Shown here piece by piece: positions 38,862 through 46,502 of a stretch of 64,000 bases of DNA. Both the position numbers and the translations under genes were made by a program. The notes beneath the pieces are model-generated. The model saw nothing but the letters and a program-made list of their open reading frames with translations. It did no database searches and had not been told where the DNA came from. Every line of letters starts with the position of its first letter. Within the stretch, counting starts at the first letter, position 1. The stretch is taken from positions 73,776 to 137,775 of the forward strand of contig CAKUXX010000006.1 in the NCBI GenBank assembly GCA_934702355.1. The letters run 5' to 3'. The stretch is from an uncultured Methanomassiliicoccales archaeon. GTDB lineage: Archaea; Thermoplasmatota; Thermoplasmata; Methanomassiliicoccales; Methanomethylophilaceae.

Positions 38862-39423
38862 TTTCAGGGCGGCTATGGGGGAGGATGCTATAAGAGGTGC
38901 GTTCGGCCGAGACTGTTCTCCCTTGTTTCAAGCGGTCATTTTGCACAAAATGGGTGAATTCCATCATTTTTGCTCCCCGATCTTGTATCCTGTCAGTCCT
39001 TAGTTTGAAATTCCGCTAATTTTTTCCATTTTATCAAAGTAAGGAGAAACGGTTCAAGGAGTGTACGACCCTTGAAACGTCGATTTTTCAGACATATAGG
39101 TTGCAGAGAGTATGCTCAGTTTTTACTTCGATGACGTCAAAATGGAACTGGGTACTACTGTAGCGATATGAAATCGTCGTTATTGCATAGGGTATGAATC
39201 CAGGTCAGCCTAGTTGTGGGGGTAGAACTGGGGGAGGTAGAGTACTGTTGAAAAGTTCTAGCATCACATAACAATGCAGTATGTCGCAGGTAGCGACGGA
39301 TGCATTCCTGAATGGATCCTCGGCTTCTGTTCAAGATGCCAATTTGGAATCTTGAATATTCTTCACCCGCAGCTGAAAACAGAATATGGGTGGTAGATGG
39401 GATTGTTACGCGCCATTACCAAA

Positions 39424-39470
39424 TGGCATAAGAAATGGCATAAGAAGTGGCATAAGAAGTGGCAGTGAAG
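39424..39470. repeat. 12-nt tandem repeat TGGCATAAGAA(A/G), 3 full units plus a partial
   Basis: Units at 39424-39435, 39436-39447 and 39448-39459, plus a degenerate TGGCAGTGAAG. Related copies: GGATAAGAATGG (39643-39654) and GGTATAAGAATGA (40311-40323). Confidence 0.8.
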
Positions 39471-39651
39471 TTGAGATTACGCCAATCGTCAGCAATTATC
39501 TTTTTCCGATTTTTCGAAACAGTAATGTCAATCATCCCAAAAACTTGTAAAGGATGCTTCAGAGACCCTTTTTTCATGCTCCGCAAAGGGGTGTAATTCC
39601 AATAATCCGATAAATCGTAAGTGGCATTCCGCCGAGAAGTATGGATAAGAA

Positions 39652-39672
39652 TGGTCCTTCCTCCCTGATTTG
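39652..39672. repeat. Imperfect direct copy of the 3' end of tRNA-Tyr (att-like)
   Basis: TGGTCCTTCCTCCCTGATTTG versus TGGTCCCCACTCCCTGATTTG at 40333-40353 (18 of 21 identical). Both are preceded by an ATAAGAATG motif. Confidence 0.6.
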
Positions 39673-40353
39673 CTACTTGGCATTTTTGTCAATTCAATCA
39701 CCCAATCCGACTCTGCGCCGTAATTACGAGGATGGAGACTCGCATTATATGGATGTCATCAGAGAGAAGATATCCATTGCCCGTAAGGATTGATGGCCAC
39801 CCTTGGCAGCCGAGCTTACGGGTCTTATCAGGATACTTTTCGGTTGTTCATCAAACTATTTAAATGGTCCTACCAACCGATTCAATATTCGTTGTATGTT
39901 GGGACTTTGAATCTACTTGAGGATATGGCCACTGTCCAAATTACAAGCAGGATTAAAATCGACGGGAGAAGACACCCCTTCCGAAACCGCTTTGTAAATT
40001 GCTTTCTCGGTCCATTTTGTGGATTCGCCAAGGGCAAGACTGTATACGTCTTCAGGATTGAATCTGTTTATGTCGCAATCTTTTTCAGACTGTTCATACG
40101 ACGAAGGATCCGACCGATATACAAACAGATCGAGAGATGGGGAACGGATGGGAGGGGCTGTACCGATCAGATGCGGCACTCCCAGCTAATACGTTCAAAG
40201 GGAAAACGTGTTACTTCAGAAGAATGTACAAATGTGTCGATTTTAAGGTACTGACGCCATTGATGGCAATCGATGGGGCGCCTATAAGGTTTAAATTCAG
40301 AAATAAACCAGGTATAAGAATGAAGAAGGTAGTGGTCCCCACTCCCTGATTTG
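39652..40353. mobile_element. Possible relic of an element integrated at tRNA-Tyr (no intact genes)
   Basis: Segment bounded by the tRNA 3' end and its degenerate copy. It is AT-rich and contains only short, stop-ridden ORF fragments. Confidence 0.3.
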
Positions 40354-40444
40354 AACAGGGGACCTGCTGATTTCAGCGGCTGCATCGGTTTCTTCCGAAA
40401 ACACTCTACAGTCAGCCGCTCTGGCCAGTCTGAGCTAAGTGGGG
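40333..40444 (-). tRNA. tRNA-Tyr (anticodon GUA) with 34-nt intron at 37/38; CCA encoded
   Basis: Acceptor stem CCCCACT/AGTGGGG (C1-G72), D arm GCTC..GAGC, anticodon stem GCTGA/TCAGC with loop CTGTAG|intron|A, T arm CCCTG-TTCAAAT-CAGGG, discriminator A plus CCA. Confidence 0.85.
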
Positions 40445-40500: not shown

Positions 40501-40836
40501 TCACAGATAATCCGTGAATCCGGACATGTCCAGGACGTCCTTCACGCTTCCGCTCGCATTGATTATGGCCAGCTTGTTGTCGCGTCCGGTAGCCTTGTCG
40601 AGGGACAGGATGGCCCTAAGCCCGGCGCTGGACAGGTAGCTGACATTCTCCATATCGAGAGTCGCAGACCTTCCTCTGCATTTCTCTGTAGCGGTTGCCT
40701 GGAAATCGGGCGATGTGATGGAATCGAGCCTTCCTTTCATCTTGATAAGGATCCCGTCCTCATTCTCTATGTACGTCACTATGAGGGGCTCATCTTGCTT
40801 TCTCATTCCGAACATGGGCGATACCAATGGGTTCAT
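40501..40836 (-). CDS. STAS-domain anti-sigma-factor antagonist-like protein (SpoIIAA/RsbV type)
   Basis: 111 aa. The VSYLSSAGLRAIL block holds the phosphorylatable Ser context, followed by LAIINASGSVKDVLDMSGF. Confidence 0.85.
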   Translation of the reverse strand: MNPLVSPMFGMRKQDEPLIVTYIENEDGILIKMKGRLDSITSPDFQATATEKCRGRSATLDMENVSYLSSAGLRAILSLDKATGRDNKLAIINASGSVKDVLDMSGFTDYL

Positions 40837-40866
40837 GAACCCATAGGTTAAACTGATTTCGGAAAA

Positions 40867-41715
40867 TCAGTAGCCTTCTATGCCTGTGGCACCCTGCGAT
40901 CTGATCAGCGTCTCCATGAGCTTCTCCTCATATTTCCACTGACCTTTCACATGGTTTCCGAATCTGATGTTGGAGAGGATGATGATAACCACTGAGTAGA
41001 ATCCGAGAGTAACAACGAACAGTACGGTGTTGATCACCGGATGAAGATTGCCTGTGCATCTCCTCATCGGTTCCACAGCTATCCCGGCACGGCGGAGCTC
41101 TTTGGACATCGCTTCTGTGAACTCGCACTGGAGCTTGTCGTGCTTGCTGGGGAATCTGGACACGGAACCTGCGGTGATAAGGTACTGTACGATCACAAGT
41201 GCGTAGCATGCCACATAGATCGCTGTGATGTGGGTGTCCATGATCCCGACCCTGTGGTACGACATGATGCCTATGGCGCAGATGTACAGCGCGGTGAATG
41301 CCCATATGGCCATGGATGCCCCGTTGTTGATCTTGGTCGTCAGCATGTCCGCCTCCTTGGATATGCGCCTCATATCCGCACTGTTCCCGCCGACGCTGTC
41401 GACGTAGTCGCAGAGCGAGGACATCCATTCGACGTCGCGGCGCATATGGCGTTTCGAACGGCGGCTCATGAACAGGAGGATGAAGCTGATCATCCCGCAT
41501 TCCACCGATGCCACGATCGCATAGGCTATCTCGCCGTCGGTGCGGATATCGAAGATGTCCGGATGACTCGACGATGCGTACGATGTCATGACGAGGCCGA
41601 ACAGGACGGGCACGAGCATCGATGTGATGAGAAGTGTTGTGCGGGTGACTGAGTCATATCTTCCGCGGTTGATAACGCAGTCCACGAACCGGTCGGCGGC
41701 ATCGTTCCTTGCCAT
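40867..41715 (-). CDS. Polytopic membrane protein, uncharacterised
   Basis: 282 aa with about 5 TM helices and cytosolic charged loops. Co-directional with the STAS gene and 30 nt upstream of it. Confidence 0.6.
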   Translation of the reverse strand: MARNDAADRFVDCVINRGRYDSVTRTTLLITSMLVPVLFGLVMTSYASSSHPDIFDIRTDGEIAYAIVASVECGMISFILLFMSRRSKRHMRRDVEWMSSLCDYVDSVGGNSADMRRISKEADMLTTKINNGASMAIWAFTALYICAIGIMSYHRVGIMDTHITAIYVACYALVIVQYLITAGSVSRFPSKHDKLQCEFTEAMSKELRRAGIAVEPMRRCTGNLHPVINTVLFVVTLGFYSVVIIILSNIRFGNHVKGQWKYEEKLMETLIRSQGATGIEGY

Positions 41716-41760
41716 GAAGGGGGAGAATCGTTTATCAAATATGAATCCAGTCCAGGTCTG

Positions 41761-42327
41761 ATGTCTGCATCCGGAGTCAAAGGCATAAGCGATAACATCG
41801 GCGACGCTGTTTCATCGCTGGTCGACAGGGCGGTATGTCCGATGGCGCTCAGGTTCGCAGAACTGTTCATGATGGTCATCATCGGGATCTATGTCGCCAA
41901 GCTACTGGTCCTCGGAATGGGATTCTCGTCCGGATACGGTTTCCGCGAAGCCGCTCTGATATCGTTCGTGATGGACGTCGCCCTGATGTTCATGACGGTC
42001 GATTCTCTGCTGACGCTGTCCACGGCCGATTCCAGGTCGTGGAAGAAGGCCGTCCGCGCAGCCGTTCTGCTAGTGGTGGTCAATCTCCTGTATCGCGCAG
42101 GATTCTCCGCAACGGCCGCCGGAGTGATATCGTTCAATCCGATCATGATAATCATCGTCTCGGCAATGGTCATCTGCTGTCTCTTCCTGCGCCAGGTCCG
42201 CGAGCATTTCGTCCCGCCCGGACTCGAGATGCCGCCTCTGAGATCATGGGTCGCGTTCGCCGCGTTCTGGCCCCTTTTCCCCTCGGAACACTACCGCATG
42301 GCGTTCGACAGGGCTGAAAAGGACTGA
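41761..42327 (+). CDS. Polytopic membrane protein, uncharacterised
   Basis: 188 aa with about 5 TM helices. It lies 38 nt upstream of the RsbW-like kinase gene and diverges from 40867-41715 across a 45-bp spacer. Confidence 0.55.
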   Translation: MSASGVKGISDNIGDAVSSLVDRAVCPMALRFAELFMMVIIGIYVAKLLVLGMGFSSGYGFREAALISFVMDVALMFMTVDSLLTLSTADSRSWKKAVRAAVLLVVVNLLYRAGFSATAAGVISFNPIMIIIVSAMVICCLFLRQVREHFVPPGLEMPPLRSWVAFAAFWPLFPSEHYRMAFDRAEKD

Positions 42328-42365
42328 GTACCAACGCTCGGATTAAAGTATGAGGAGTTCATCAG

Positions 42366-42809
42366 ATGTCGATGGAGTCGGATAAACGCTCCCATTCAAG
42401 GTCGATTAACGTACCTTCCAAGGTCGATAATCTGTATGAGGTCCAGGATTTCGTGGACTCATGCCTTTCAGGCAGTTCGCCTTCCCATACCACTCTTCTT
42501 CAGCTTCAGCTGGTGGTGGAGGAGATCTTCATCAACATCGCGAACTATGCTTACAGACCTCCGGGCTCCGGCGACGTCAGCATATCATGTGCCGTGGAGG
42601 AGGACATGATGAAGGTCACGCTGACCTTCGTGGACTACGGTCCGCAATTCGACCCTCTGAAGAAGCCCGATCCCGACATAGGCGCACCTCTGGACGACCG
42701 CGACATCGGCGGACTGGGGATATTCCTTGTGAAGAACAATGTTGACGGCATACACTATCGTCGCGACAACGGGAAGAACATCCTCACGGTCGAGAAGTTC
42801 ATCTCATAA
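42366..42809 (+). CDS. Anti-sigma regulatory factor-like Ser/Thr protein kinase (RsbW/SpoIIAB, HATPase_c)
   Basis: LQLVVEEIFINIANYAY (N-box region), FVDYGPQFDP, DIGGLGIFLVKNNVD (G boxes). 147 aa. Confidence 0.85.
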   Translation: MSMESDKRSHSRSINVPSKVDNLYEVQDFVDSCLSGSSPSHTTLLQLQLVVEEIFINIANYAYRPPGSGDVSISCAVEEDMMKVTLTFVDYGPQFDPLKKPDPDIGAPLDDRDIGGLGIFLVKNNVDGIHYRRDNGKNILTVEKFIS

Positions 42810-44789
42810 GATCTCTTTTTCACGATCCTTCGGTTTCCCGTCGTATCTGAACATAAGCATCGTGACATCATCGAACTGCTCTGCATCGTTGGTGAATTCT
42901 GCGATATCCTTTCTGATGGTGGCTATCTGCTCGTCAAGAGGCTCACCTCTGTGTGCGTCGAGCAGTTCCATCAGGCGGTTGGTGCCGTAGAATCCCTGAT
43001 AGCCGTCGTTCGCCTCGGTCACACCGTCCGTATAGAGCAGTATGCAGTCGCCGACGGACATGTCCAGCTCGTATGTGGTGTACTGGACACCCTCCCTTGC
43101 GCCGAGGACCAGGGAAGGCTTGCACTGGACGAGCGATACCGGTTCCTCCGCACGGACGGACACGGGCGGATTGTGTCCCGCATTGCAGTATCTGAGGTTG
43201 CCTGTGGACAGCTCCATGATGCCCAGCCAAGAGGTGACGAACATGTTCTCGTCGTTGTTCCTGCAGAGGTTGATGTTGACCTTGGCCATGATTTCGCTGG
43301 GCTGCAGGCCCGGGCGGGACTGACTCTCGATGATCGATTTCGTGACGGCCATGAACAGTGCCGCGGGAACCCCCTTTCCGGAGACATCCCCGATGACGAG
43401 TCCGATGTGGTCCGTGTCGATCACGAAGAAGTCGTAGAAGTCCCCTCCCACATATCTGGCGGCGTCCATCGATCCTGCTATGGATAGGCCGGTGCCGTCC
43501 AGCGATCCGAAGTTCCTTGGGATGAACGATTCCTGGATGTTCTGTGCGACATCCAGTTCGGCCTTGTACTTCTCCTGGACGCTGTTCAGCGATTTGATGT
43601 CGTAGATGTACTCCTCGATATCGTCGGTCATCTTGGTCAGCGACCTCGCAAGACCTCCGATCTCGGTCTCGTTCTCGGTCAGCGGTGCGCAGAGTCTCTT
43701 GAACTCTATTCCTGAGTCCCCGTACTCATCATCGATGAAGTTGCGGGCGGCCGAGGACATCGTCTCGATCGGGACGGTGACGTTGCGCTCGAGATACCAC
43801 AGGAACGCCAGGGACGGAAGGAAGAATCCCACCAGGACGACGCTCATGTAGAATGTCGTCGCCTGTGCGTCGCTCAGACCGAACAACGGGGACAGGATGC
43901 CGACCCTCGTGCCTATGACGGTCGCGGTACACACGGCCATGCCGTAGATCAGCAGTATGGCGATCATGCGCTCTATCAGACTGCTGTTGAATGTGTTGAC
44001 GCGGAATCCCCAGACCATCTTGGTCTTCTCCGACGCGGTGGAATGCTCTATGGGGATCAGCAGGAACAAGCCCAGCAGTACGTAGAGACATGCCGCGGTG
44101 GTGAATATGGAGTCCACTTCGGGCCTGTATGTCAGATACGTTATCGGTGCCACTATGGCTATCAGCAGGCATATGTGGTACCATCTGCGGTCGATCCTCC
44201 TGCGGAAGTCGTCCGGGGTTCCGCCGAATTTGGGGGTGTAGAACCTGAATCCGAAGTACCTGAGTATGAGGATCCCGGACAGACCGAGCATCATGGACAG
44301 GGACATCGCGTTGAAGAACGTGGTGACGTCCATGATCTCGACGGTATGGGTTCCGTATTTGACGGAATCCGACACATTGCACACTATCGTATAGAGCACG
44401 GCCGATATCAACACGACGACCACGAACTTCACGACATTGTTCACAGAGTCGAGAACGGGCGGACGGTCGTCCTTGGTCATGTCAGTGCTGTACCACAGCC
44501 TGTACGGTATGTACGATATGAGCGAGATGTTGATGGTATCCAGCACGATCCCTGTCAGGCCGACGCCGGTCAGACAGTCGTAGACTATGTTGACTATGTT
44601 GATCCCGATGCAGGCGTATGGTCCGCATAGAAGGCCCGTGACGATGCAGATCGCCATCACGGAGGGGATGTATGACGGGATCAGAGATTCGATGATGCAG
44701 GTGCACACTGCCACAACCATTACGAATAGCGTTATCAGGACCTCGTGGTATCCGACGTAGTCGCTGACCTTCCTGTTCATAAGGTGCAT
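42804..44789 (-). CDS. Membrane sensor PP2C phosphatase (multi-TM domain, HAMP, SpoIIE/PP2C)
   Basis: About 10 TM helices, a HAMP-like linker (ERNVTVPIETMSSAARNF..GGLARSLTKMTDDI), then GGDFYDFF..IGDVSGKGVPAAL..NAGHNPP..LYTDGVTEA. Confidence 0.9.
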   Translation of the reverse strand: MHLMNRKVSDYVGYHEVLITLFVMVVAVCTCIIESLIPSYIPSVMAICIVTGLLCGPYACIGINIVNIVYDCLTGVGLTGIVLDTINISLISYIPYRLWYSTDMTKDDRPPVLDSVNNVVKFVVVVLISAVLYTIVCNVSDSVKYGTHTVEIMDVTTFFNAMSLSMMLGLSGILILRYFGFRFYTPKFGGTPDDFRRRIDRRWYHICLLIAIVAPITYLTYRPEVDSIFTTAACLYVLLGLFLLIPIEHSTASEKTKMVWGFRVNTFNSSLIERMIAILLIYGMAVCTATVIGTRVGILSPLFGLSDAQATTFYMSVVLVGFFLPSLAFLWYLERNVTVPIETMSSAARNFIDDEYGDSGIEFKRLCAPLTENETEIGGLARSLTKMTDDIEEYIYDIKSLNSVQEKYKAELDVAQNIQESFIPRNFGSLDGTGLSIAGSMDAARYVGGDFYDFFVIDTDHIGLVIGDVSGKGVPAALFMAVTKSIIESQSRPGLQPSEIMAKVNINLCRNNDENMFVTSWLGIMELSTGNLRYCNAGHNPPVSVRAEEPVSLVQCKPSLVLGAREGVQYTTYELDMSVGDCILLYTDGVTEANDGYQGFYGTNRLMELLDAHRGEPLDEQIATIRKDIAEFTNDAEQFDDVTMLMFRYDGKPKDREKEIL

Positions 44790-44805: not shown

Positions 44806-45561
44806 TCATTGTATGTAGCTCAGATCCTCTTTGTTTTCAGATGCCTCACCCGGCCCTATGGATGCCCGGGAGGCCTCGTCTATCATGTCGGCATATTCGG
44901 AATAATCGTCGGTGTCCACATCGATCCCCAATAATGAATTGAGTGCATGGATGATATGCCTAGCGCTTCTATGGTCGATTATGTACCCCGACGTTTCGCC
45001 TATGAGGGCCATCGACGGTATGCTGTACCTCTGTCCGAAGGTGAGGAACAACGCAGTTGCACCGATGATCCCGCCCTTCGGTTCTTCGGGATAGAATCCC
45101 ACTCCGGCCGCTTCGAGTTCCGGTTTCAGCTTCGCATCGCTGACCACTCCGATCAGTCTCGGGCTGTCCTTGAGCTCTCCCGTGCCGTAGCCTCCAAGCG
45201 TGATTATCCTCGAAGGTTCGAATCTGAGAACCTCGTTGAAAAGGAACTCGGTCAGGTCATACTGACCCGAGGGGGTCGTCGCCTGGGATTCCCCTAGAAT
45301 GAATATTATGTCCCCTGCGTCCGTCTTCGCATGGAGGAGTTCGATGCAGATCGGCTTGGACACGGAATCCTCGTCGATGAGTATCTGTGGCGGGAGGTCC
45401 GAGGAATACACCCTTTCGAAGACCTCGGCGTTCAGTTTCTTCGCCATCAGGTCTGCGGCAAGCTTTCCGATGTTGCCGACTCCGGGCAGTCCCTCGATGA
45501 TGATGGGGGCCTCGATCTCGACCCGACGGATATGGTCAATCGAGTTTGCCATTTTCACCAT
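44806..45561 (-). CDS. PAC2-family proteasome assembly chaperone-like protein
   Basis: IIIEGLPGVGNIGKLAADLM..ILGESQ..ITLGGYG..GIIGATA, the pattern of archaeal PAC2/COG1938 proteins. Confidence 0.8.
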   Translation of the reverse strand: MVKMANSIDHIRRVEIEAPIIIEGLPGVGNIGKLAADLMAKKLNAEVFERVYSSDLPPQILIDEDSVSKPICIELLHAKTDAGDIIFILGESQATTPSGQYDLTEFLFNEVLRFEPSRIITLGGYGTGELKDSPRLIGVVSDAKLKPELEAAGVGFYPEEPKGGIIGATALFLTFGQRYSIPSMALIGETSGYIIDHRSARHIIHALNSLLGIDVDTDDYSEYADMIDEASRASIGPGEASENKEDLSYIQ

Positions 45562-45718
45562 ACCTCTCGAGAATTGTTCTTCTGCGGTATTCGCCCATGC
45601 GGTCCTCCGGGGAATACCTCGGAGGAATGGGGCATATCGTGTCGCATTTGCAATGCTTACACCGAAAAAGAAGAGTGTAGGTCCCGCAGGAGGGGCATTT
45701 CCTTATTTTGGAAGCCAT
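45536..45718 (-). CDS. nop10: H/ACA RNP protein Nop10
   Basis: MASKIRKCPSCGTYTL..CKHC..PPRYSPEDRMGEYRR. ATG at 45718 lies 1 nt after the aIF2-alpha stop. Confidence 0.85.
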   Translation of the reverse strand: MASKIRKCPSCGTYTLLFRCKHCKCDTICPIPPRYSPEDRMGEYRRRTILERYGENGKLD

Positions 45719-45719
45719 C

Positions 45720-46502
45720 TCACTTGCTCTCACGTTTGAGAACAGCGGTTCCGTTGTTGGATGTCAGATCCTCTATGGCGGCGGACGACACTTCCTTCAT
45801 GATCTCCTCTGCTTCCTTGTATTCGGCAGCATTGACGACCACTCTGTACTTGGGGCATCCTACGCAGGATATCTCGACATCGTAATCCTTGGCCACTTCT
45901 TCCGCGGCAAGGAGTGCGTGTTTGACAAGTTCCATTCCGTTGGGTGCGGAGGATGTGAGCTCGAGGATTCCGTCGATCTGGACGGACGGCGGGATCACGT
46001 TCTCCTTCGCAACCTCAATGAATGTGTCAAGCCAGTCGCCGGAGAACTCCTCTGTGAAGTCCTCTTCTTCGACGACAGCGGCTTCGAAGGCACTGTAGAG
46101 CGTTTCGTAAGTCTCCAGCAGGTCGTTTCCGAACATGTCGTAGGCGTCGTCTATGGAGATGTTCATCCTCTCGGCGACGATCTCCACGAGCTTCTCGGCC
46201 TTCTTCTCGTTCTTCCACTGCTGGATCTTCTCTCTCTTCTGGTGCTCGTTTACGGATTTCAGGGAAAGGTCGATGTGTCCTTTTGAAGAATCAACGCCCA
46301 GGACCTTACAGACAATCTTCTGTCCTTCCCTGATGTAGTCCCTGATGTACTTAACCCAGCCAGAAGCGACATCCCTGACATGGACGAAACCTTCTTTCTC
46401 GTCATACTCATCGAGTGTGACGAATGCACCGAAGTTCTTCACGTTCTTGACAGTGCATACGACGAGCTCGCCGTGCTCGGGGAAGCCCCTGACCCTAGAC
46501 AT
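45720..46502 (-). CDS. eif2a: Translation initiation factor aIF2 subunit alpha
   Basis: S1 domain (GELVVCTVKNVKNFGAFVTLDEY..GFVHVRDVASGWV) plus helical and alpha-beta domains. 260 aa. Confidence 0.93.
   Translation of the reverse strand: MSRVRGFPEHGELVVCTVKNVKNFGAFVTLDEYDEKEGFVHVRDVASGWVKYIRDYIREGQKIVCKVLGVDSSKGHIDLSLKSVNEHQKREKIQQWKNEKKAEKLVEIVAERMNISIDDAYDMFGNDLLETYETLYSAFEAAVVEEEDFTEEFSGDWLDTFIEVAKENVIPPSVQIDGILELTSSAPNGMELVKHALLAAEEVAKDYDVEISCVGCPKYRVVVNAAEYKEAEEIMKEVSSAAIEDLTSNNGTAVLKRESK

Follow-up and report, generated by a model that had tools for sequence, protein, structure and literature searches.

Judged by its domains and motifs, a group of five genes in the window (the whole stretch of DNA analysed, 64 kb from an uncultured gut archaeon of the Methanomethylophilaceae, order Methanomassiliicoccales) encodes a genuine partner-switching phospho-module, in which a STAS protein, an RsbW-type kinase and a phosphatase are predicted to exchange partners. 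The genes of the module are interleaved with those of two membrane proteins, M1 and M2. All five open reading frames (ORFs) outlined in the original prediction, a reading of the letters made without database searches, are present at their coordinates in the ORF list of the window. We suggest that the locus provides a specific and testable candidate target for the SpoIIAA/AB/E-like switches of archaea.

The STAS protein (40501-40836, minus strand; 111 aa) is a single domain that matches Pfam STAS (E = 5.5e-12) and STAS_2 and scores 53.7 bits against the NCBIfam anti-sigma factor antagonist model TIGR00377, with a cut-off of 53.45. The serine context VSYLSSAGLR, pointed out in the original prediction, is encoded at 40615-40644 on the minus strand. 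S70, the second serine of YLSSAGL (codon 40627-40629), aligns with S58 of B. subtilis SpoIIAA (1auz) and is the predicted phospho-acceptor of the protein. The motif Y[LI]SSAGL is retained by every archaeal STAS orthologue recovered.

The second component, at 42366-42809 on the plus strand (147 aa), is an RsbW/SpoIIAB-type GHKL serine kinase, as had been proposed, with a match to HATPase_c_2 (PF13581) at E = 1.5e-21. Its N box (E53, N57), G1 box (D90-x-G92) and G2 box (G115-G116-L-G118) align to those of B. subtilis RsbW (6m36). Damage to the ATP-binding boxes, which would have spoken against the original prediction, is thus not seen in the window kinase. The three boxes are also kept in the archaeal relatives P0016-P0043, except that G2 is absent from the 119-aa fragment P0040.

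The third component is a putative membrane sensor phosphatase of 661 aa (42804-44789, minus strand). Its C-terminal part (aa 459-649; 42843-43415, minus strand) is a SpoIIE/PP2C domain (Pfam SpoIIE, PF07228, E = 1e-52) of the PPM type. The metal-binding aspartates lie in the motifs GGDFYD, GDVSGKG, YTDGVTE and FDDVT, which are invariant among 8 archaeal sequences. In the Protein Data Bank (PDB) the domain matches Rv1364c, chain 6k4e_A (listed as 'Putative serine phosphatase') and RssB PP2C domains. Ahead of it, hydropathy outlines a transmembrane (TM) domain at aa 1-335 (43785-44789, minus strand), followed by a HAMP-like linker at aa 335-392 (43614-43787, minus strand). The protein had been described as a HAMP-PP2C phosphatase with about 10 TM helices. 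The SpoIIE/PP2C part of this description stands, while hydropathy gives about 9 hydrophobic segments and the linker reaches 16.6 bits against HAMP (PF00672; profile positions 4-52 of 53), below the gathering score of 25. A weak HAMP match recurs in 7 of 8 phosphatase orthologues, always under the gathering score (best E = 2.8e-4); both the TM count and the HAMP call are readings of sequence alone. The same TM domain is common to all archaeal phosphatases recovered, paralogues included, with the motifs GLLFGPYAC, IPYRLWYS..DRPPVLDS and LLRYFG.RF.TPKFGG, and hence it looks like a lineage-wide input module. Taken together, the domains and motifs support a complete triad that looks catalytically competent.

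Archaeal transcription uses TBP and TFB. Since archaea have no bona fide sigma factors (PMC2686161), the sigma-regulating form of the switch is excluded. A Pfam scan of the eight proteins encoded between 35.9 and 45.6 kb likewise found no sigma factor.

The membrane ORFs were correctly recognized as such: M1 (40867-41715, minus strand; 282 aa) and M2 (41761-42327, plus strand; 188 aa, four TM helices) are both hydrophobic, and neither matches a Pfam or NCBIfam family. They had been taken for two different orphan proteins, which they are not. Word-indexed searches returned 9 relatives of M1 and 6 of M2. When the M1 alignment was used in an exhaustive profile search, 172 representative clusters came up, of which 39 had E ≤ 1e-30; the representatives of the family (about 170) are clusters at 50% identity. 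About 30 M1 relatives are 455-650 aa long, and their extra C-terminal half carries the motifs of M2. With offline profiles, M1 and M2 domains were found in one chain in 32 of 148 representatives, in the order M1-M2 in 30 and M2-M1 in 2, and fused M1M2 ORFs occur also in the metagenome loci L026-L045. Because such single-chain members exist, M1 and M2 are, by sequence, the N- and C-terminal halves of one family, and the idea of two unrelated orphans is ruled out.

This family has no known relative that we could find in the resources searched. For it, fused members included, nothing in Pfam, NCBIfam or PADLOC rose above sub-threshold noise. A YbjO_DH-like match (E = 0.0035) was rejected as lying under its gathering score, and so was the sole result of a PDB profile search, FdnI cytochrome b556 (E = 0.14). 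Foldseek comparison with the PDB gave best E-values of 0.23 for the model of a fused member and 0.13 for that of window M1, with template-modelling scores of at most 0.30. M1, M2 and the fused members show no Sulfate_transp or other known transporter domain or fold, so that the earlier suggestion of a channel or transporter gated by kinase binding is left without direct support.

AlphaFold2 predicts the fused member confidently as a single unit, with a predicted local distance difference test (pLDDT) of 84.9 and a predicted template-modelling score (pTM) of 0.85; the corresponding values for window M1 are 89.7 and 0.84. The topology was read by combining predicted secondary structure with hydropathy. 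M1 reads in the model as an N-terminal amphipathic helix followed by four TM helices, two of which have long extensions, and a pair of short helices (aa 226-235 and 240-273) looks like a re-entrant hairpin. Its near-invariant residues are H90, R93, D94, W97, H192, Q196, H255 and E263. They belong to the motifs H-x-x-R-D-x-x-W after TM2, P-x-x-H-[DE]-x-x-Q-x-x-F-T after TM4 and H-x-x-x-Q-W-x-Y-E after the hairpin; Q259, W260 and Y262 of the window protein also fall on invariant or nearly invariant columns. The conserved motifs of M2 are an SRxxSW turn and a C-terminal PP..W tail, VPPGLEMPPLRSW. Because of the K/R-rich loops and the fusion linker, we infer that nearly all invariant polar residues of M1/M2 lie on the cytoplasmic side.

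The five genes are tightly packed. M1 and M2 diverge from a spacer of exactly 45 bp (41716-41760), as originally noted, and each is followed by one switch gene in its own direction: STAS 30 bp behind M1 and RsbW 38 bp behind M2. The kinase ATG is preceded by a GAGGAG motif 8 nt upstream. The kinase and phosphatase genes overlap by 6 bp at their 3' ends, and searches for further copies of the five genes in the window found none. The centre of the spacer is AT-rich, with a TATA-like element, TTTATCAAATAT, at about 41731-41742, some 20-27 nt from both start codons. Spacers of about 41-45 bp with an AT-rich core are found also in L001, L002, L004, L013, L016-L019 and L022 (L numbers denote the loci compared). 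From the compactness of the spacer and the position of its core we infer a shared bidirectional promoter, which would give leaderless or short-leader mRNAs.

The full layout places the aIF2alpha, PAC2 and PP2C genes in one direction, RsbW and M2 facing them in the other, and then M1, STAS and tRNA-Tyr in the first direction again. It is found in the window organism (L006-L009), in L010-L015, L017, L019/L020 and L022/L023, that is, in about 9-10 species-level lineages; L002-L005 duplicate some of L010-L015. Among these loci the lowest identities to the window are 37% for M1, 59-63% for RsbW, 48% for PP2C and 46% for STAS, and in most of them the gaps between genes are short, about 24-61 bp. The window-identical and related contigs derive from metagenome-assembled genomes of gut Methanomassiliicoccales/Methanomethylophilaceae. 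Among the relatives, Methanomethylophilus alvi is available as an isolate (PMC10673518).

Outside of this clade the M1M2 family keeps a different company. A metagenome scan with fused members yielded 33 loci, of which seven span 10-17 kb. Most of the 33 have the M1M2 gene in contact with a gene for a leucine-rich repeat (LRR)-like protein. Such a gene is listed for 25, in a few of which it lies further off or before a paralogous M1M2 copy. The LRR-like gene is placed upstream of fused M1M2 and downstream of M1 in a second clade with split genes. Four of six LRR-like genes tested have BspA-type LRR_5 repeats by Pfam, and the proteins carry a signal peptide, a C-terminal TM anchor and a short basic tail. 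Tandem LRR-M1M2 cassettes occur in L034, L038 and L040. No LRR-like ORF was found in the window or in L001-L025; in the clade of the window, STAS holds that position. The usual pairing with LRR proteins, together with the conserved polar cytoplasmic face, suggests that M1/M2 serves functions of the cell surface as a transducer or platform, and is not a transporter.

How could such a platform be joined to the switch? We consider the functional coupling of M1/M2 to the switch evenly poised between true and false, and the narrower claim, that in this clade M1/M2 is the third partner of the module in place of the sigma factor, falls somewhat short of that. The coupling is proposed because the STAS-RsbW bicistron is split here, with each gene placed behind one half of M1/M2, and because this order is kept. 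Random insertion explains such a layout poorly. The mechanism that we propose is the following.

Step 1: From the 45-bp bidirectional promoter region M1 and STAS would be expressed in one direction and M2 and RsbW in the other. All four products would thus arise side by side at the membrane that also houses the phosphatase, and the role of the sigma factor as third partner would fall to the cytoplasmic side of the M1/M2 complex.

Step 2: STAS would be phosphorylated at S70 by RsbW. A membrane or envelope signal, passing through the TM domain and the HAMP-like linker of the phosphatase, would then switch on dephosphorylation.

Step 3: Unphosphorylated STAS would capture RsbW, and this would change which soluble protein is docked on M1/M2 and thereby the activity of M1/M2. 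In one variant RsbW itself docks on M1/M2 and is removed by unphosphorylated STAS. In the other, unphosphorylated STAS would be the effector and bind M1, as in the SiaC and All4160 systems. The STAS-effector variant has more precedent outside sigma control, because of these two systems (PMC7647112; bioRxiv 10.64898/2026.04.08.717354). It also fits locus L018, which keeps M1-STAS without a nearby kinase.

Several observations weigh against the coupling. The link between M1/M2 and the switch is one of gene order alone, and in most of the M1M2 family the neighbourhood holds no switch. No relatives of STAS, RsbW or PP2C were found in the flanks of any of the 33 metagenome loci, in a screen that used STAS and RsbW profiles from the switch-linked clade, missed the divergent HATPase_c_2 domain of L021 and might let other divergent kinases escape. 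Exceptions exist also among the closer loci. L018 has M2, M1 and STAS in the usual arrangement, with no kinase within 20 kb and phosphatase copies about 7.5 kb off. L016 has only the divergent M2 and M1, directly before the tRNA, and a single phosphatase about 7.7 kb off, and L001 has the M1/M2 pair alone in a different neighbourhood. In L021, by contrast, PAC2, RsbW and PP2C occupy their usual slot without M1, M2 and STAS. Hence, the association of M1/M2 with the switch is dispensable, and the slot is prone to rearrangement. In addition, the phosphatase may be expressed from an upstream housekeeping operon, apart from the other four genes.

The history of M1 puts these exceptions in order. 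A neighbour-joining tree of M1 domains resolves fused clades, the split LRR-linked clade and a third clade, in which L001 is basal and the switch-linked copies form one subclade. As L016 and L018 are nested among the switch-linked copies, the simplest reading of the tree is that the linkage was gained once and then partly lost. The expected synteny of the membrane genes with the module is therefore seen in one clade of about 9-10 lineages and fails across the wider M1M2 family. Inside the switch-linked clade we encountered none of the findings that the original prediction had named as contradicting it, such as loss of synteny. Its proposal that the membrane proteins are targets or co-sensors of the switch fares in the same way: the pairing of M1 with STAS and of M2 with RsbW recurs within the clade, but the link is exceptional in the family as a whole.

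The strongest alternative, which we regard as unlikely though well worth keeping in sight, is that the genes are neighbours without coupling. A bacterial switch would have landed beside M1/M2 in the rearrangement-prone slot between aIF2alpha/PAC2 and tRNA-Tyr, the order would persist by descent, and the true target would be encoded elsewhere. Such an account draws on the plasticity of the slot (RsbW is missing from L016 and L018, STAS from L016, and M1, M2 and STAS from L021), on the variable cargo next to the tRNA and on an M1M2 family otherwise unlinked to switches; moreover, several switch modules per genome could act in trans. It does not readily explain why a STAS-RsbW bicistron of the donor type was split with each gene tight behind a different half of M1/M2, nor why the order is kept down to 37% M1 identity, since descent rarely preserves such short co-directional gaps.

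Somewhat less probable still is that M1/M2 acts on the input side, as a co-sensor or scaffold that brings STAS and RsbW to the membrane beside the sensor phosphatase, with a soluble protein, such as a transcription factor or enzyme, as the output, bound by RsbW or by unphosphorylated STAS. Extracellular LRR proteins are typical ligand-binding modules, and the pairing of M1/M2 with them elsewhere suggests a transducer role. The conserved polar residues, moreover, appear to face the cytoplasm. A STAS-like protein is also the effector on a non-sigma enzyme in SiaABC and HenR/All4160 (PMC7647112; bioRxiv 10.64898/2026.04.08.717354). However, the phosphatase has a large TM sensor domain of its own that is conserved in all paralogous modules, the M1/M2 copies of this clade have no LRR partner in their flanks, and the locus has no conserved candidate for a soluble output. 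That the kinase works as a true anti-factor in archaeal transcription, directed at a TFB/TBP paralogue or a sigma-region-4-like protein, with M1/M2 irrelevant, is very improbable: it would follow from bacterial analogy only, as a possibility raised and left open for Methanomicrobiales (PMC2686161), whereas the locus holds no such gene, archaeal region-4-like proteins have no sigma regions 2 and 3, which SpoIIAB contacts (PMC2686161), and in the closest relatives among bacteria STAS and RsbW form a bicistron that has no sigma gene beside it.

Those relatives bear on the origin of the switch. In the kinase search, an archaeal group with at least 59% identity is separated by a clear step from gut and rumen bacteria at 44-52%, among them Selenomonadaceae, Lachnospiraceae and Saccharofermentans. 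Two of these bacteria (L024, L025) have a plain STAS-RsbW bicistron with no sigma gene adjacent. That an archaeal protein is about 50% identical to those of gut Firmicutes speaks for horizontal acquisition, and the switch genes are thus probably of bacterial origin. A likely bacterial origin was proposed in the same way for the switch genes of Methanobrevibacter ruminantium (PMC2812497).

Other modules of the lineage carry genes of their own. In L022 (1720-6039; also in L023) a second module lies beside the first and comprises STAS, a GH3-family adenylating enzyme, RsbW and a convergent membrane PP2C phosphatase. L021 (3675-5384) encodes a 569-aa MatE transporter fused to a C-terminal HATPase_c_2 (RsbW-like) domain, and this gene adjoins LuxE/LuxC-family genes and the RsbW/PP2C pair in the same aIF2alpha-PAC2 neighbourhood. 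Hence, RsbW-type domains can become attached to polytopic membrane proteins in these archaea, and L021 and L022 together indicate that the switches of this lineage repeatedly bear a non-sigma cargo gene.

The module belongs to the same three families as SpoIIAA/SpoIIAB/SpoIIE and RsbV/RsbW/RsbU of Firmicutes, and the serine, the N, G1 and G2 boxes and the PPM metal motifs of these are conserved here. Like SpoIIE, the window phosphatase has a polytopic N-terminal membrane domain. Unlike the modules of Firmicutes, the locus lacks a sigma factor and keeps its STAS and kinase genes apart, with a membrane-protein gene ahead of each. Against the NCBIfam equivalogs the window proteins stay far under the cut-offs (37 versus 145 for RsbW, 28 versus 491 for SpoIIE) and are not their orthologues.

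In archaea, SpoIIAA/AB/E-like triads have been known in Methanomicrobiales since 2009, and their targets could not be read from the genome (PMC2686161). In M. ruminantium the triad genes adjoin cargo genes for a non-ribosomal peptide synthetase and MatE (PMC2812497), a cargo theme that returns in L021 and L022. These systems resemble the present one in that they are found in methanogens, are full triads, have no sigma factor and are likely of bacterial origin. The window differs from them in the specific, clade-conserved membrane partner interleaved with the switch.

Non-sigma outputs of partner switches are established in bacteria (PMC7647112; bioRxiv 10.64898/2026.04.08.717354). SiaABCD of Pseudomonas aeruginosa combines a PP2C phosphatase, a kinase and an antagonist-like phospho-protein with such an output (PMC7647112). 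The window phosphatase aligns to NCBIfam SiaA over the linker and PP2C domain (aa 317-650), but its score of 68.6 bits against NF038263 lies far from the cut-off of 700, so that the locus is not of the SiaABCD type. It has a canonical STAS protein in place of SiaC and an uncharacterised membrane protein as the candidate output, and no GGDEF domain or diguanylate cyclase is encoded in the locus. In the HenR/All4160 system of Anabaena, phosphorylation of a STAS domain directly controls a non-transcriptional target that acts on the cell envelope (bioRxiv 10.64898/2026.04.08.717354). The host in that case is a cyanobacterium, the target is an enzyme of polysaccharide biosynthesis with no homology shown to M1/M2, and the kinase gene lies elsewhere. 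A further parallel, by analogy only, is offered by the SLC26/SulP anion transporters, in which a STAS domain is attached to a polytopic membrane protein; the M1-STAS pair could be a non-covalent version of the same idea.

In the literature searched we found no described target of an archaeal partner switch and no description of this membrane family. The clade-conserved interleaving with a specific membrane partner appears to be new, as do the recognition of the 'orphans' as halves of one unnamed family without a solved relative and the near-constant pairing of the M1M2 family with LRR surface proteins. The locus also exposes a sizeable unnamed membrane family with a confidently predicted fold. 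In host-associated methanogens, LRR surface proteins are usually treated as adhesin-like. A real coupling would tie the sensing of the environment to the behaviour of the cell surface in gut methanogens, and would be an example of a bacterial signalling module re-purposed after its transfer to an archaeon. One may go further and see in M1M2 a new class of membrane signalling platform of gut and rumen Methanomassiliicoccales, which would ordinarily work with an extracellular BspA-type LRR protein. In this clade a phosphorylation-driven partner switch would have taken the place of the LRR partner, and an archaeal 'anti-sigma' module would have in the M1/M2 complex its first concrete output or receptor. 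We offer this larger proposal tentatively and think it rather doubtful. Were it true, control by the switch would be exerted on a cell-surface or envelope function at the membrane itself and not via transcription.

The genomic setting of the locus is conserved. The PAC2-family gene (44806-45561, minus strand; Pfam PAC2, E = 2.6e-42) ends 16 bp upstream of the phosphatase start and is the final gene of an L44e-S27e-aIF2alpha-(Nop10) cluster, whose order with PAC2 recurs in L002, L004, L017, L019 and L022. The phosphatase may thus be co-transcribed by read-through from this translation-related housekeeping operon. A Nop10-like ORF lies at 45536-45733 on the minus strand, before the PAC2 gene and the phosphatase.

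On the other side, a tRNA-Tyr (GTA) gene with an intron (40336-40444, minus strand; 109 nt) lies 56 bp beyond the STAS stop. It scores 49.9 bits with Rfam (RF00005) and was missed by ARAGORN; its anticodon loop was read as CT-GTA-GA, which gives Tyr plus an intron. Copies 95-100% identical lie just past STAS in L002-L020, and in L016 straight after M1. Beyond the tRNA the GC content falls to 0.425 (39001-40000), so that the AT-rich island first described next to the locus is indeed there. By GC content, ORF list and contig comparison it is not part of the switch. This stretch (38870-40335; 1.47 kb, GC about 0.43) has only short ORFs, none of them convincing, no Rfam match besides the tRNA, and occurs only in the same-organism contigs L006 and L007. 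The early suspicion that the switch itself is accessory does not hold: because the L44e-S27e-aIF2alpha-PAC2 neighbourhood and tRNA-Tyr are conserved, the locus is core and syntenic, and the strain-specific part is limited to 38870-40335.

The slot beside tRNA-Tyr looks like a variable integration hot spot. In relatives it holds AAA_14/DUF4143 ATPases, an acetyltransferase and SLFN_AlbA_2 in L002/L014, and SduA_C with an N6_Mtase/Eco57I methylase in L019. The records of L011-L015 are titled Firmicutes bacterium CAG:194, Lachnospiraceae, Bacteroidaceae, Prevotella hominis and Dialister hominis despite the archaeal locus; given aIF2alpha, L44e, S27e and PAC2 on it, these bins are apparently mislabelled or chimeric.

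In the wider family, LRR neighbours that abut or overlap M1M2 are met across L026-L058, for example at L032:6769-7983, at L047:8858-9535 and in L040. The URO-D family includes methylcobamide:coenzyme M methyltransferases, and in the second split clade a URO-D-family gene comes right after M2 (L047:6252-7259, L051:3487-4503, L055:860-1879, L057:469-1485), in the slot that RsbW occupies in the clade of the window. XPD helicase and HcyBio neighbours in the wider-family loci are consistent with methanogenic archaea.

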